Below, piece by piece: positions 45,001 through 48,000 of a DNA stretch of 64,000 bases (position 1 is the first letter of the stretch; every line of letters starts with the position of its first letter). Where the stretch lies: assembly GCA_050290185.1 (NCBI GenBank), contig JBNKHE010000004.1, positions 1-64,000 of the forward strand, given 5' to 3'. The DNA is from Pontiella sp. GTDB lineage: Bacteria; Verrucomicrobiota; Kiritimatiellia; Kiritimatiellales; Pontiellaceae. The position numbers are program-made.

Positions 45001-48000
45001 GGCGTTTCGGAAGCCGGCAACGGAAGCAACGTGGTGCTGACGCTCCCGATTTCGGGCATGGATTCCAACCGCTTCTTCAAGCTCGATGTCCAGCGGCTAT
45101 AGGGAAAGCGCAGAACCTCCAAGGAATTGTTACGATCGCAACGTGTAGGGAGGGGTCTGCGGCCCCGCCGCCGCGATCATGGACCGAGTCTACATTGTTC
45201 TAAACCTAAATGCGGGTATAGGCCACGAATGGTTATGAAACCACTGGTGTAGAGAACGCTGAACCACGAAGTGGACAGCGTTGCCGCGCGCCACGGTCAA
45301 CGTTTGCCGTTTCACTGCCGTCGCGTTGCGCCAGCCTCACTTCGTGTCACTCGCTGCACTCGCGTAAACGTTCTCTACACCCGGGGCTCTGGCCCACGAG
45401 TGATCATAACCGCGACGGCATCATGGAACCATCGATCCAGGTACCGCCTACCTGGATTTTGCTTTGTATCCGAGGGCTCTCCCTGCGAGGATCATTCATG
45501 TGGGAAATCAGGGAAAAAATGCCCATGCGTCCGACCTCCCTGGAGTTGTGGTCGATCCCGGCATCAATAGGTGTATCGAACATCGTGGTCGTGGCCAATG
45601 CGATCTCGTCGGGAACACGGATTCCCAACTCCTCCAGCATCGCGGGCAATTCGCCATTGTCGGTAATAATGGCATCCGGCCTTTCCTTCTGGATCCATGC
45701 CGCCAGCTTTTTCCGGTGCTGGGCCGGATTTTTAAGCGGCAGAAAAAACTCGGGGATCTGGACGGATTGCATGCGTTGAGCCCAGTAAAAACCCGCGCCC
45801 AAGGTTCTCTGTATAGCGCGATCGCCGACAAATGCTATTCGCCTATACCCTCTGTTCAGCATGTTTTGCAGCGCCAATACACCGTTGGCCATATCATCGC
45901 AGGTCACCGTATAGGGCAGATCAACGGGATACGAAACCCCGAGTCGAACCGTAACGTAGTCCTGCCATGGAAAGCCATCCAGATCGTCCGCCACCGGCAC
46001 GGAACAGGGAGGGACGAGTATGCCCCGGATGTTGCGGGTCTTGAATATCCTGTCGAGCCGTTGCAGGGGAATGTCCTTCGCGGCAAACTTCTCGAGGTGA
46101 TAGCCATGCCGTCGTGCGCCATCGACAGCTCCCTCCCAGTATTGTTGAAATTCTCGGTAGGAATACAACTTTTCAGGATCCGCCCACAAATTCAGCCAGG
46201 CCAGTTCGCCATGGACTGGATTTTCCTGGGTAATCCGGCATTGCTGTCCCATGGCCACAAGCATGGGATCGGGCACATACCCCATCGCCTCCGCCTTCTT
46301 CTGGATGCGCTTGCGCATGGCCTCGGAAATTTGCGGACGGTCGCGCATGGCCAGCGAAACCGTCACGTGCGACACCCCGACCTCCCTGGCGATATCCCGA
46401 TAGGTTACGCGCTTGCCGGAAGTGCCCTTCTTCGTTTTTTGCGATTTCAGCTTGGGCCGCCCCTTGGGCACGGTCCAGTTGCCCTGCCTCTCCGGCCCGC
46501 GCCTTCCGGTCCGGTCCGGCAACATGTCGCCATCGACCCATTGCCCCGTGACCACGCTCTGCTTGCAGATTTTTGAAATACCCCGCCCTACCTCGTTCAA
46601 CAAGAAAATCAGGATCAGCGCGGCAATCCGTCCGATTTCCTCGGGGTGTTGGTCAATGCCGGCATCGATGGGCGTATCGTACACTGATGTAGTCGCCAAG
46701 GCGATGTCTTCAGGAACACGGTAGCCCAGATCCATCAGGTTTTTCCGCAGGGGGACGAGATTCGTGATGATCGCGTCCGGGCGTTCCTTTTCGAGCCAGC
46801 TCTTCAAGGCGGGGAGATGCTCTTTGGTTTCCACGGGATGAACCAACAGCAACGGCACCCGCATGGATTTGGGAATCTCCTTCTGCGCCCAAAACACCCC
46901 GGCGCCGAAGGGGAGTTTCTGATCCTTCTCCGTAACAAAACCGATCCGCCGATATCCCCGCTCCCGCACCCTCTCGAACGCCAGGATGCCGTTGCCCACC
47001 TGGTCGGCCGTCACCGAATGCATGAACGGCTTCTCCGACTCCAGGCCAAAGCGGACCATCGCGAATTCATTGACAGGAAACCGCGTCATGTCCAGAACCG
47101 GTTTCGAACTCTGCATTACCAGAAGACCCTGAACATTCCGTTCCCTCAACCTAGCTAGCAGTTGGTCCATCGACAGCCCCCTGGCAACTACCTCCTCGAA
47201 GGCATAGCCCAGCTTGGCCGCGGCTTCGGCCGCCCCCTTGTAGTACAAAGCGAGTTCACCAAACTCATACAACTCATCGGGATCCTGCCACAGGTTGAGC
47301 CATGCCAGCCGGATCGGTGGCCGTTCGGAATTATCGACCCGGCTGTAATCCGAAAGCGCCGCCATTTTCCCATCGCGCACATAGCCCATCTCCTGCGCTT
47401 TCTGCCGGATACGCCTGCCCAGCTCTTCCGAAACCATCGAACTGCCACGCATCCCATGGGATACCGAAGCGAGCGAAACGCCCAGTGCATCGGCAACTTC
47501 CCGCAAGGTAACCCTGCGACCGACCCCGGCATGTTTCCCATTCCCCTCTCGATTTCCCATAGACAACCCCCAAGCCCCTGAATAGGAAAAAACCCAGGCC
47601 GACGCAACAACTAAACTTGGTAAATCCAAAGTTGATGGACGCTGGTGAACCAACGGAGTAGAAATCGACAATTCCTAGCTTAGGAATCTCGTTGGGGAAT
47701 GGTCCATGACGGGTTGAAGAGGTGAAACAGATGGAAAGGAAAAACATGAAAATGAAAGCAGTATTAACGGTCGGGCTGCTCGCGACTCTGGCTCAGTATG
47801 CCAGTGCCAGCGTCATCGTCCAACCGATCAGCGCGACCAGCCCGAACCTAGCGGCTCGACCTATCGAAAGCTCGTACGACGGATCCGGGTTGACCGACAC
47901 TACCATTGTCGAGACCGGTGACGCGATTCCTGTCTCCTATCCCGGGCATGACAAGGACAATGCCGCCAGCGAGTGGCAGACGAGTGCCCAGGCCAATACT

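Follow-up and report, generated by a model that had tools for sequence, protein, structure and literature searches.

The question raised by this locus is whether a single polypeptide that carries two LacI/GalR units could serve as its own dimer and read an operator that lacks the usual symmetry. LacI is the textbook repressor, and the family is viewed as homodimers acting on palindromes. The window analysed here is the whole 64,000-nucleotide stretch of the Pontiella sp. contig (contig C4 of the genome, G000). It contains a tandem regulator gene, g01317, flanked by genes for secreted carbohydrate-binding and lyase-like proteins.

Domain architecture of the tandem regulator

The gene and the parts of its product are located as follows.

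45404..47560, minus strand: tandem LacI/GalR regulator gene g01317; 718 aa, stop codon within the span, stop-free frame
47375..47509, minus strand: N-unit HTH (aa 18-62); PF00356, 39.6 bits; recognition helix SLASVSH
46511..47311, minus strand: N-unit sugar-binding core (approximately aa 84-350); PF13377, 29.9 bits at 46589-46975; in the AF2 model, residues 84-342 alternate between strands and helices
46412..46495, minus strand: inter-unit linker (aa 356-383), disordered and rich in K, R, P and G; pLDDT below 50 at residues 356-382
46268..46399, minus strand: C-unit HTH (aa 388-431); PF00356, 48.3 bits; recognition helix SHVTVSL
45416..46204, minus strand: C-unit sugar-binding core (approximately aa 453-715); PF13377, 38.9 bits at 45464-45865; AF2 secondary structure

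Translation of 45404-47560 gives 718 residues with no internal stop. The open frame extends 5' to a TTG at 47671, but the start was placed at the ATG at 47560 because the N-termini of the orthologues match the latter. The protein has the architecture HTH-core-HTH-core and consists of two complete LacI/GalR units, as the initial annotation had proposed. A Pfam search finds the LacI HTH (E 6.6e-22) and Peripla_BP_3 (E 1.8e-17) in two stretches each. In the six-frame family searches of the genome that supplied the domain coordinates, both HTHs and both cores lie above the family cut-offs (27 bits for PF00356 and 26.5 bits for PF13377), which places the protein in the LacI/GalR family by HTH and by core. 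The N-terminal core had been described as too diverged for Pfam; at 29.9 bits against a cut-off of 26.5 bits it is not. The identity of the halves (39% over 343 aa, E 1e-88) and that of g01317 to its paralogue g02651 on contig C10 (55.8% over 708 aa) agree with the earlier values of about 39% and 56%. As in a single-chain repressor, two HTHs are present in one polypeptide with a variable, disordered linker between them; in clade A this linker is 32-37 aa long and weakly conserved.

Unfused neighbouring pairs of such genes are known in other genomes, and an error of assembly or sequencing that merged adjacent genes could in principle produce the same reading frame. However, both paralogues and a second Pontiella genome (G044) show an uninterrupted frame, 19 distinct two-unit proteins come from different sources, and a 1085-nt contig from a separate sequencing run (X4) crosses the linker without indels; no one contig of the runs compared covers the gene from end to end. 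An artefact is therefore hardly credible.

Predicted structure

The AF2 model of the 718-residue protein has a pTM of 0.72 and a mean pLDDT of 77.5, with low confidence at the N-terminus, the hinges and the linker only. When the N unit (residues 1-355) and the C unit (residues 371-718) were predicted as a complex, the ipSAE was 0.82, compared with 0.00 for the best of three controls, although these scores, like those of the AF2 model, may echo memory of solved LacI-family dimers and are also compatible with pairing between chains. At least 83% of the contacts were common to the runs and the partner pLDDT was at least 79; of 157 solved complexes, 116 attain the mark used for such predictions, as do two of 215 mismatched pairs. 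The predicted N:C interface is pseudo-symmetric and involves residues 113-119/484-485, 186-188/555-558, 212-227/585-596 and 305-340/672-707. The modelling thus suggests that the two halves of g01317 form a pseudo-symmetric intramolecular dimer.

The best structural matches to the model are CelR (PDB entry 5ysz), PurR (2pua), RbsR (9ny7), CcpA and LacI (1efa), which cover approximately the length of one unit (about 350 aligned columns) with a TM score of 0.5-0.6 on the target. When the PDB was searched by sequence with the C unit, four chains were returned, in which the HTH aligned well and the core aligned in weak, unreliable stretches. The cores have diverged too far from solved structures to let their effector pockets be mapped.

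Neighbouring genes

Three genes in the vicinity of g01317 are presumed to be its targets.

47722..48408, plus strand: small secreted CBM32 (F5/8 type C) protein, 228 aa; Pfam F5_F8_type_C
42187..45102, plus strand: 971-aa secreted protein; Pfam PF05426 (alginate-lyase-like), PF00754 (CBM32) and PF00041 (fn3)
39537..41867, minus strand: 776-aa CBM32 and fn3 protein (Pfam)

The earlier description of the immediate neighbours stands for the alginate-lyase-like/CBM32 protein and for the small CBM32 protein, the F5_F8_type_C match of the latter (E 5.5e-06) scoring 27.0 bits, slightly below Pfam's cut-off of 28.2 bits. The N-terminal module of the 776-aa protein is similar in sequence to that of the 228-aa protein. 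A PEP-CTERM-like tail, which had also been reported, can be seen by eye in the 228-aa product, but a search of the target proteins against NCBIfam gave no match, for this tail or otherwise.

Candidate operators

Three copies of a 15-bp motif lie in the intergenic regions that flank g01317.

47611..47625, minus strand: candidate operator 1, ATTTACCAAGTTTAG; exact 15-mer, 24.0 bits with the position weight matrix (PWM); kept in G044
42085..42099, minus strand: candidate operator 2, same 15-mer as operator 1; the ATG at 42187 lies 87 nt downstream; kept in G044
41998..42012, plus strand: candidate operator 3, TATTACCAAGTTTAG; two mismatches to the 15-mer, core identical, 21.1 bits; kept in G044

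The core of the motif, TTACCWAGTTTA, occurs five times in the 3.58-Mb genome, and all five occurrences are intergenic and adjoin the two tandem genes. Exact copies of the 15-mer of the present locus, CTAAACTTGGTAAAT, number two in the 3.58 Mb, at 42085 and at 47611; the copy at 41998 is the third and differs by the two mismatches. The 15-mer of the C10 paralogue, AGTTACCTAGTTTAC, was detected independently as a local repeat, with two exact copies in the genome and three weaker ones at the C10 locus. A PWM built from the eight sites scores these sites at 21.1-25.0 bits and the next genomic matches at 19.0 and then 15.4 bits. Among 54 genomes of the family, the core is found five times in G000, three times in G044 and zero to two times in each of the other 52 (12 in total); these comparisons are partly circular, since the motif comes from the very loci that it is taken to mark, and one close relative, G044, provides the independent DNA context. 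The candidate sites are kept in G044, one of them as a conserved island amid diverged flanks.

Distances from the sites to the starts downstream of them are 27-205 nt, in most cases in agreement with the 30-140 nt reported for LacI-family sites in PMC4052901, and each tandem regulator gene has one 27-50 nt 5' of its own start. Candidate operator 1 is 50 nt 5' of the regulator ATG, within the divergent region shared with the small CBM32 gene, and candidate operator 3 precedes the minus-strand gene with its start at 41867 by 130 nt. From these sequence features we infer that the 15-bp motif is the operator of the tandem protein.

Alternatively, the motif could be a promoter element or the site of another factor, with the tandem regulators binding elsewhere. 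Its lack of the central CG that is family-typical according to PMC4052901 would be in keeping with this, as would the lack of a sigma-70-type promoter that could be mapped near the sites (a scan of both intergenic regions gave no promoter-like site). We nevertheless consider this very improbable: the motif accompanies the tandem genes in two of two genomes, whereas the 52 other genomes of the family show it at no more than background level, its half-sites belong to the same family as palindromes found 5' of single-unit relatives, and its placement 27-50 nt 5' of each regulator start is that predicted by autoregulation. In separate scans of the region, seven terminator-like matches were found at 45050-47800, compared with 2.8 expected, and an Rfam search of 36000-52000 returned no family.

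Symmetry of the sites and pairing of the units

Of the 1303 family motifs in PMC4052901, 1251 are palindromes of even length and 1173 have CG at the centre. The candidate operator departs from this rule, having 15 bp and no CG centre. The sites of the present locus have three of seven symmetric pairs and are clearly asymmetric. Those at C10, read in a 14-bp register, have five of seven, the same as the candidate site of a single-unit paralogue on contig C6, and their asymmetry is moderate.

Both divergent intergenic regions contain two oppositely oriented sites, approximately 87 bp apart at the present locus (41998 and 42085) and approximately 69 bp apart at C10 (35794 and 35864). The LacI tetramer bridges two operators and loops DNA. 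Such site pairs would also suit pairing between chains, in which the N unit joins the N unit, and the C unit the C unit, of a second chain, or in which domains are swapped, to give a bivalent, tetramer-like looping repressor. Homodimers are the general rule for LacI-family units, and the complex prediction covered the pairing of N with C only. However, pairing between chains predicts two palindromes, one for each type of unit, whereas a single non-symmetric motif is found at all eight sites. In addition, AF2 sets the halves confidently within one chain, and the protein ends directly after the core with no C-terminal tetramerisation helix. Pairing between chains thus appears distinctly improbable, and pairing within the chain is the reading that we retain.

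Half-sites and recognition helices

The consensus of the candidate operator is (A/G)(T/G)TTACC(A/T)AGTTTA(G/C). Perfect even palindromes are present upstream of single-unit relatives in the genus: TTTTACC-GGTAAAA at L022 and CTTAAAC-GTTTAAG at L017 and L023. At the tandem genes, each site joins a half of the TTACC type to a half of the GTTTA type. The non-symmetric motif resembles a hybrid between two types of half-site, each of which is seen in palindromic form in the genus. The AGTTTA half is invariant across the candidate sites; the left half is more variable, with TTACC kept in six of the eight.

The two reading heads differ in a consistent manner. In clade A, the first specificity position of the recognition helix is H in all nine C units and in none of the eight N units that were read (the N unit of P0008 was left out). 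The C-unit helix of g01317, SHVTVSL, is identical to that of the single-unit paralogue, and L017 and L023, with their CTTAAAC-GTTTAAG palindrome, carry a helix of the SHV type. Of the two helices, the ancestral-type one in the C unit probably reads AGTTTA, and SLASVSH, the derived one in the N unit, probably reads TTACC. Because the hexamer GTTWAC is nearly palindromic, the right half-site could be assigned either orientation. We also considered hexamers like GTTTAC arranged as a direct repeat for two heads in tandem orientation; the sequence is compatible with such a repeat, but the predicted pseudo-twofold interface does not fit it, and the idea was rejected.

Selection on the two units

The computed substitution rates show that the N unit and the C unit are both under purifying selection. 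For the C10 orthologues of G000 and G044, omega is 0.13 in the N unit, 0.12 in the C unit and 0.64 in the linker; for the orthologues of g01317, it is 0.20 in the N unit and 0.06 in the C unit.

The N unit might still be a degenerate partner, a scaffold that neither binds an effector nor reads DNA specifically, which would leave a repressor with one sensor. It evolves faster (dN of 0.068, compared with 0.027 for the C unit, in the C10 orthologues) and has a longer branch in the tree. Its Pfam scores are lower than those of the C unit (29.9 versus 38.9 bits for the core and 39.6 versus 48.3 bits for the HTH), and the half-site assigned to it is the more variable one. Against this, an omega of 0.13-0.20 indicates strong constraint over the whole N unit, the invariant columns of the clade-A alignment are about equal in number in the two halves, the N-unit HTH retains the canonical framework and TTACC persists at most of the sites. 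We regard degeneration of the N unit as quite unlikely.

Relatives and origin of the fused form

Each half of g01317 is 41-46% identical to the single-unit C6 gene. Among 176 related proteins, a unit profile finds two full units in 20 entries (19 distinct genes), which fall into four separate clades; by this computation, the fusion arose at least four times independently within this Verrucomicrobiota LacI subfamily. The fused form is not limited to the present genome, since G044 has both tandem genes, with the same open frame in the orthologue of g01317. No further fused gene was found in an order-level search of 89 genomes besides those of G000 and G044, and in a phylum sample of 401 genomes, with two candidates scored per genome and G044 outside the answer list, fused genes were found in G000 only. 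A scan of other genome contigs gave a near-identical Pontiella MAG as the sole full-length relative, and none of four loci from a metagenome scan had a fused gene. Long open frames in G232, G374 and G344 were rejected as fused genes, as they contain single units. The architecture had been called very rare and had not been found in 400 other Kiritimatiellia genomes. It is indeed rare, but G044, the repeated origins, the 19 distinct genes and the unfused pairs described below show that it is neither unique nor confined to one genome.

Unfused head-to-tail pairs of single-unit paralogues, spaced by 20-36 nt, are present at L027, G300:C103 and G268:C1, and the members of each pair are sisters in the tree. 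These adjacent pairs are likely to be the precursor state of the fused genes. The gene g01317 would have arisen when a single-unit regulator gene was duplicated in tandem at its locus and the stop between the copies was then lost; in its product, two diverged units, each with an HTH, a hinge and a two-lobed sugar-binding core, would be joined by a flexible linker of approximately 30 residues.

Proposed mechanism

The reading that we favour, with a probability of roughly 0.6, is that g01317 is a covalent pseudo-heterodimeric local repressor that is autoregulated and, by way of an asymmetric operator, controls the adjacent genes for secreted carbohydrate-binding and lyase-like proteins. Such a pseudo-heterodimer on an asymmetric operator had been suggested initially, and it now has computational support from the locus-specific non-symmetric motif, the consistent difference between the N and C helices and the N:C ipSAE. 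The two cores would pack within one chain as the subunits do in an ordinary dimer of the LacI family, so that one polypeptide would constitute one DNA-binding unit, and because the two recognition helices differ this unit would read a non-symmetric 15-bp operator. Acting at the three candidate sites, which lie in two intergenic regions, both promoter-bearing, on either side of its gene, the protein would repress itself and the three neighbouring genes until a sugar effector binds the cores; both the repression and its induction are deduced from this arrangement.

A more tentative proposal, which we think unlikely as it stands, is that the two diverged cores bind two different sugars and that the covalent pair is a natural two-input gate. 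If so, the glycan-binding and lyase genes would be fully derepressed only when a complex polysaccharide has yielded both of its products, and the recurrent fusion would have been selected for fixing the hetero-pair and blocking homodimer cross-talk with the palindromic operators of single-unit paralogues.

Comparison with known systems

Like the homodimeric LacI/GalR repressors (PurR, CcpA, RbsR, CelR and the LacI core dimer), g01317 has an HTH and a two-lobed core in each unit, is a local regulator that adjoins CAZyme genes and has candidate sites 5' of its own gene. It differs from them in having two diverged units in one chain rather than two identical chains, and in a candidate operator of 15 bp that is non-palindromic and without a central CG. 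The unfused adjacent pairs belong to the same subfamily but encode separate proteins, and the pair at L027 has a perfect palindrome, GCGACCGGTCGC, in three copies, in contrast to the hybrid site at the tandem genes.

In the full-text literature outside subscription journals, we found LacI engineered into single-chain or heterodimeric forms, but neither a tandem LacI/GalR protein of natural origin nor regulatory sites described for the Pontiella (Kiritimatiellota) group. The motif sites are therefore candidates for the first operators of glycan-degradation-locus regulators in this group. The engineered single-chain repressors (scDBD-LacI, single-chain 434 and Cro) also carry two DNA-binding domains per polypeptide, and single-chain 434 derivatives bind asymmetric operators (PMC10096509). 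As described there, the engineered proteins are constitutive because only the DNA-binding domain is duplicated, whereas g01317 is natural and keeps both sensor cores. A single operator of two half-sites read by different LacI variants is raised as a design option in PMC2925522; homodimers and heterodimers of those variants mix because the subunits are separate chains, whereas covalent fusion in g01317 locks a 1:1 hetero-pair.

If the proposed reading is correct, g01317 would illustrate how a repressor can escape cross-talk after duplication, as a covalent heterodimer that is natural, has been kept by selection and has a hybrid operator. The evolutionary route could then be traced stepwise in related genomes, from adjacent duplicates through fusion to the divergence of one reading head. 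Synthetic biology would also gain an inducible single-chain repressor that is ready to use, possibly responds to two inputs and comes with its own orthogonal, asymmetric operator.

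Domain architecture of the tandem regulator

The gene g01317 encodes 718 residues followed by a stop codon; its translation has zero internal stops, and the plus strand across the same interval has many. The frame is open upstream as far as a TTG at 47671, and the ATG at 47560 fits the orthologues, which begin 15-20 residues ahead of the first helix-turn-helix (HTH). Pfam recognizes LacI HTH in two stretches (E 6.6e-22) and the sugar-binding core, Peripla_BP_3, in two (E 1.8e-17). The domain coordinates are from searches of the complete genome (3.58 Mb, 163 contigs) with the families in six frames.

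Domains of g01317 (45404-47560, minus strand)
47375-47509, minus: N-unit HTH, 39.6 bits (cut-off 27)
46589-46975, minus: N-unit core, 29.9 bits (cut-off 26.5)
46268-46399, minus: C-unit HTH, 48.3 bits (cut-off 27)
45464-45865, minus: C-unit core, 38.9 bits (cut-off 26.5)

The HTH-core-HTH-core architecture of the initial annotation is borne out, with all four domains above their cut-offs; these include the N-terminal core, which had wrongly been considered too diverged for Pfam. Its estimates of about 39% identity between the halves and about 56% between g01317 and the paralogue on contig C10, g02651, were reproduced (39% over 343 residues, E 1e-88, and 55.8% over 708 residues by tblastn, respectively). 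By tblastn, the genome contains only three members of the subfamily, the third being a single-unit gene on contig C6 that is 41-46% identical to either half of g01317. The family searches locate one more LacI gene, of the classical type, on contig C1.

Integrity of the fusion and selection

Both tandem genes are open in G044, a second species-level Pontiella genome, with identities of 98% and 91%. A contig from another sequencing run spans 45437-46521, including the linker codons (46412-46495), with zero indels; this run and the likely source sample belong to one study, which makes the independent support for the fusion weak. An artefactual fusion is essentially excluded.

Nei-Gojobori omega for orthologues in the genome under study and G044 (nonsynonymous/synonymous differences in brackets)
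C10 gene, N unit: 0.13 (50.8/92.2)
C10 gene, C unit: 0.12 (17/39)
C10 gene, linker: 0.64 (9.5/4.5)
C4 gene (g01317), N unit: 0.20 (small counts)
C4 gene (g01317), C unit: 0.06 (small counts)

Both units are under purifying selection and the constraint on the linker is relaxed. The faster evolution of the N unit is what speaks for its being degenerate, but the unit is clearly constrained and we consider degeneracy unlikely.

Distribution and repeated origin of the fused form

A word-based protein search (7999 candidates scored) returned 26 proteins at E ≤ 1e-3, 11 of them with 696-732 residues and 97-100% query coverage. An exhaustive search of 1.84 billion representatives gave 7756 hits at E ≤ 1e-3, of which 390 reached E ≤ 1e-30, with the best 150 listed. 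A one-unit profile (350 positions, built from 114 single-unit proteins) identifies two full units in 20 of 176 related proteins, corresponding to 19 distinct genes as P0002 is the cluster of g01317 itself. The profile also reveals three fragments that start within a first unit. Other unusual arrangements are P0173 (439 residues), with an extra HTH ahead of a full unit; P0107 (1172 residues), with a 448-residue N-terminal region of unrecognized type followed by two units; and P0048 (833 residues), in which one unit follows on a GH31 fragment, perhaps through gene-calling read-through.

Trees of the individual units were calculated with FastTree (169 and 177 units) and IQ-TREE (58 units). With both programs the N and C units of one protein, or of its clade, are mutual nearest relatives, with SH-aLRT values of 97 for clade B (P0011 and P0028), 97 for P0092 and 94 for clade C (six proteins and P0107). 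Clade A, comprising g01317, the C10 paralogue and seven metagenomic proteins, groups with the C6 single-unit gene and P0041 (SH-aLRT 94), the branching order within this group being unresolved. In the IQ-TREE tree the starred branches force at least five changes of the label 'N unit'. An AU test rejected a single group of all N units (delta lnL 464, p-AU 0.0015), a group chosen after the first tree had been seen. The N-C identity within proteins (31-53%) is higher than the cross-clade identity of N with N (26-37%, four pairs) or C with C units (28-36%, three pairs). Because the unit trees, the AU test and the within-protein identities agree, we conclude that the fused form arose independently at least four times.

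The rarity claimed for the architecture holds in that few reference genomes carry it: 2 of 54 in the family, 2 of 89 in the order and 1 of 401 in a phylum sample, in which two candidates were scored per genome and weaker tandems could be missed. It is tempered by the presence of both genes in G044 and by the repeated origins.

Unfused adjacent pairs, separated by 20-36 nt and with partners that are sisters in the tree, occur at a metagenome locus (L027) and in genomes G300 and G268.

Head-to-tail single-unit regulators
L027: 4331-5374 and 5400-6542
L065 (G300:C103): 4265-5293 and 5315-6454
L066 (G268:C1): about 4650-5755 and 5756-6868

The likely route to fusion is duplication in place, after which the stop codon was lost. 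The perfect palindrome GCGACCGGTCGC occurs three times at L027, with one copy directly ahead of the second regulator gene.

Predicted structure

The AF2 model of g01317, from an alignment of 18 two-unit proteins, has a mean pLDDT of 77.5 and a pTM of 0.72; confidence is low only for residues 1-15, the hinges (64-80 and 444-450) and the linker (356-382). For two 350-residue units this pTM suggests confident mutual placement. The best Foldseek matches are CelR (5ysz), PurR (2pua), RbsR (9ny7), CcpA and LacI (1efa), each covering roughly the length of one unit (about 350 aligned columns) with TM scores of 0.5-0.6 on the target.

Prediction of a complex between the N (1-355) and C (371-718) units gave ipSAE values of 0.82, 0.81 and 0.83, compared with 0.00 for the best of three controls; at least 83% of the contacts are common to the runs and the partner pLDDT is at least 79. 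Among solved complexes 116 of 157 attain the same mark, as do 2 of 215 mismatched pairs; these counts are rough here as our own alignment was used. Equivalent segments are opposed in the complex, and strand 333-338 pairs with 698-705. The pass may derive from likeness to the many solved LacI-family dimers; the score is taken to indicate that a LacI-type dimer is a feasible model for the halves, and it is also compatible with binding to another chain. In the nine fused proteins with both linker ends recognized (seven of clade A, P0011 and P0022), the linkers are 23-37 residues long and rich in Pro, Lys, Arg, Glu and Ala, which suits a tether between the base of one core and the other unit's DNA-binding head.

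Candidate operators

Reading of the intergenic regions revealed an identical 15-mer, CTAAACTTGGTAAAT, at 42085-42099 and 47611-47625, which are its only exact copies genome-wide; a further copy, differing at two positions, is on the opposite strand at 41998-42012. A search for maximal local repeats independently picked out a similar 15-mer, AGTTACCTAGTTTAC, at the C10 locus (34511 and 38131; exact only twice genome-wide), with weaker copies of the motif at 28203, 35864 and 35794. Two copies of the 14-mer GTTTACCTGTTAAC, upstream of the C6 single-unit gene, came from the same search, and this sequence too is exact only twice genome-wide. These copies (C6 7861-7874 and 8111-8124; locus L034) are a candidate operator of the C6 paralogue and lie in the divergent region common to this regulator and a GH43 beta-xylosidase-like gene; a one-mismatch copy occurs at C1:347324.

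Positions of candidate operators, with the distance upstream of the gene named
C4, 47611-47625: regulator (ATG), 50 nt; the site is in the divergent region between this gene and the small CBM32 gene
C4, 42085-42099: 971-residue lyase-like gene, 87 nt
C4, 41998-42012: 776-residue CBM32 gene, 130 nt
C10, 35864: regulator, 27 nt
C10, 35794: divergent GH43-like gene, 75 nt
C10, 38131: GH35-GH97-LamG/SLH gene row, 205 nt
C10, 34511: 571-residue gene without a name, 125 nt

A survey of the LacI family (PMC4052901) places more than 75% of sites within 30-140 nt ahead of gene starts and finds autoregulation in more than three quarters of local regulators. The C4 and C10 positions mostly match this pattern.

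The common core TTACCWAGTTTA occurs five times in the genome, and all five copies adjoin the two tandem genes. A weight matrix built from the eight sites scores them at 21.1-25.0 bits, and the next genomic matches at 19.0 and 15.4 bits. The 19.0-bit match, TTTTACTTAGTTTAG, lies outside the window at C4:207956-207970 (L068 4957-4971). It overlaps the stop codon of a gene for a glycogen-debranching enzyme, and a starch/glycogen-synthase-like gene begins about 57 nt downstream of it; the match may be due to chance or may mark a distant regulon member. Across the 54 family genomes the core occurs five times in the genome under study, three times in G044 and 0-2 times in each of the other 52, whose total of 12 is about that of a reversed-pattern control. 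In G044 the three C4-type sites are all retained, as are two of the C10 type, one of them a conserved island (14 of 15 positions) between flanks that align at about 70% with gaps. That the motif belongs to another factor seems very improbable.

Operator asymmetry and half-site reading

The same survey describes palindromes only: 1251 of 1303 regulators have even sites, a central CG is present in 1173, and odd lengths account for 4% (PMC4052901). The sites at the tandem genes are 15 bp long and lack a CG centre. Symmetric pairs number three of seven in either register at the C4 site (about 1.75 expected by chance), and two of seven (15-bp register) or five of seven (14-bp register, GTTACCT·AGTTTAC) at the C10 site; the single-unit C6 site has five of seven. 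By pair count alone, asymmetry is clear at C4 and only moderate at C10. All eight sites carry TTTA in the right half (AGTTTA in seven, ATTTTA in one) and a TTAC/TTAA-type left half (TTACC in six, TTACT and TTAAC in one each), and none is symmetrized. We argue for real asymmetry because the same deviation recurs at all eight sites. Inter-chain pairing with DNA looping has the paired sites in divergent regions as the sole point in its favour; the recurrence of one asymmetric motif counts against it, and it is judged quite unlikely.

Single-unit relatives from the same genus have palindromes directly upstream of their genes.

Palindromes and recognition helices of single-unit relatives
L022: TTTTACC·GGTAAAA, perfect even palindrome; SKMTVSY
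L017: CTTAAAC·GTTTAAG, perfect even palindrome; SHVAVSL
L023: CTTAAAC·GTTTAAG, perfect even palindrome; SHVAVSY
L037: GCTAACC·TGTTAGC, one mismatched pair; SHVTVSK

The tandem sites can be read as an L022-type half joined to an L017/L023-type half, with one or two extra central bases. His occupies the first specificity position in all nine clade A C units (S-H-x-T-V-S-L), as in the C6, L017, L023 and L037 regulators, and in none of the eight readable N-unit helices of the clade (S-[LMVT]-[AT]-x-V-S-[HFL]; that of P0008 was left out). We infer that AGTTTA, the invariant half, would be read by the C unit, and TTACC, the more variable one, by the N unit; GTTWAC is near-palindromic, so the right half could lie in either orientation. 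The asymmetric operator proposed initially is thus supported computationally by a locus-specific nonsymmetric motif and by the differences between the N and C helices.

Proposed function and neighbouring genes

Our preferred reading, with a probability of roughly 0.6, is that g01317 is a covalent pseudo-heterodimeric local repressor that acts on a hybrid operator, is autoregulated and controls its neighbours. It would repress its own gene and three neighbouring secreted-protein genes; the alginate-lyase-like neighbour annotated initially was found again among these with Pfam, and the PEP-CTERM-like tail of the other was recognized by eye.

Presumed targets of g01317
971-residue protein: alginate-lyase-like, CBM32 and fn3 domains (Pfam)
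776-residue protein: CBM32/fn3 (Pfam)
228-residue protein: CBM32 and PEP-CTERM-like tail

The C10 paralogue would act likewise on the GH43-like, GH35, GH97 and LamG/SLH genes. No sites were found at the GH29 fucosidases or at a GH97 gene farther along the window. A two-ligand gate, in which each core would bind its own ligand, is the boldest extension and is considered unlikely; the cores are 39% identical and both are constrained.

Other features of the window
33881-35668, minus: ThiF-family protein
36433-37482, minus: WYL/WCX-domain regulator
37490-37780, 38985-39300 and 48560-48860: intergenic repeat
49235-50542, minus: HipA-like kinase (HipA_C, E 9.8e-52, and HipA N-terminal domain)
50539-50943, minus: 134-residue open reading frame
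51433-53235, minus: GH29 alpha-L-fucosidase
53256-56759, minus: GH29 alpha-L-fucosidase, extended (1167 residues)

The first two genes are near each other, upstream of the CAZyme region. The 134-residue frame lies upstream of the HipA-like gene and overlaps its start; the two, located between the regulator locus and the fucosidase genes, are possibly a HipBA-type toxin-antitoxin pair. The adjacent fucosidase genes are paralogous, with exact common stretches of at most 25 nt. The repeat (about 230-300 nt; copies 78-92% alike) occurs about five times genome-wide, including C4:68308 and C1:60102, and has no Rfam match or obvious open reading frame.

Comparison with known systems

The architecture of g01317 is confirmed and its earlier interpretation is supported and extended, all by computation. 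The gene offers a concrete case, cheap to test, in which co-divergence of repressor and operator would have been fixed by gene fusion in a paradigm repressor family.

Both units belong to the LacI/GalR family in domain content and in fold. Members of this family are normally homodimers, whereas g01317 combines the two units in one chain, and its candidate operator differs from those of the family in being non-palindromic and lacking CG. Full-text searches of the open literature and look-ups of terms in the family-wide regulon survey (PMC4052901) returned no natural tandem LacI/GalR regulator; such architectures may be listed without comment in the subscription literature or domain-architecture databases. 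The closest parallels are engineered: PMC10096509 describes a LacI DNA-binding domain repeated in tandem within a single chain, together with single-chain versions of the 434 and Cro repressors, whose operators are symmetric or asymmetric, and PMC2925522 describes pairs of LacI variants and raises hybrid operators as a design option.
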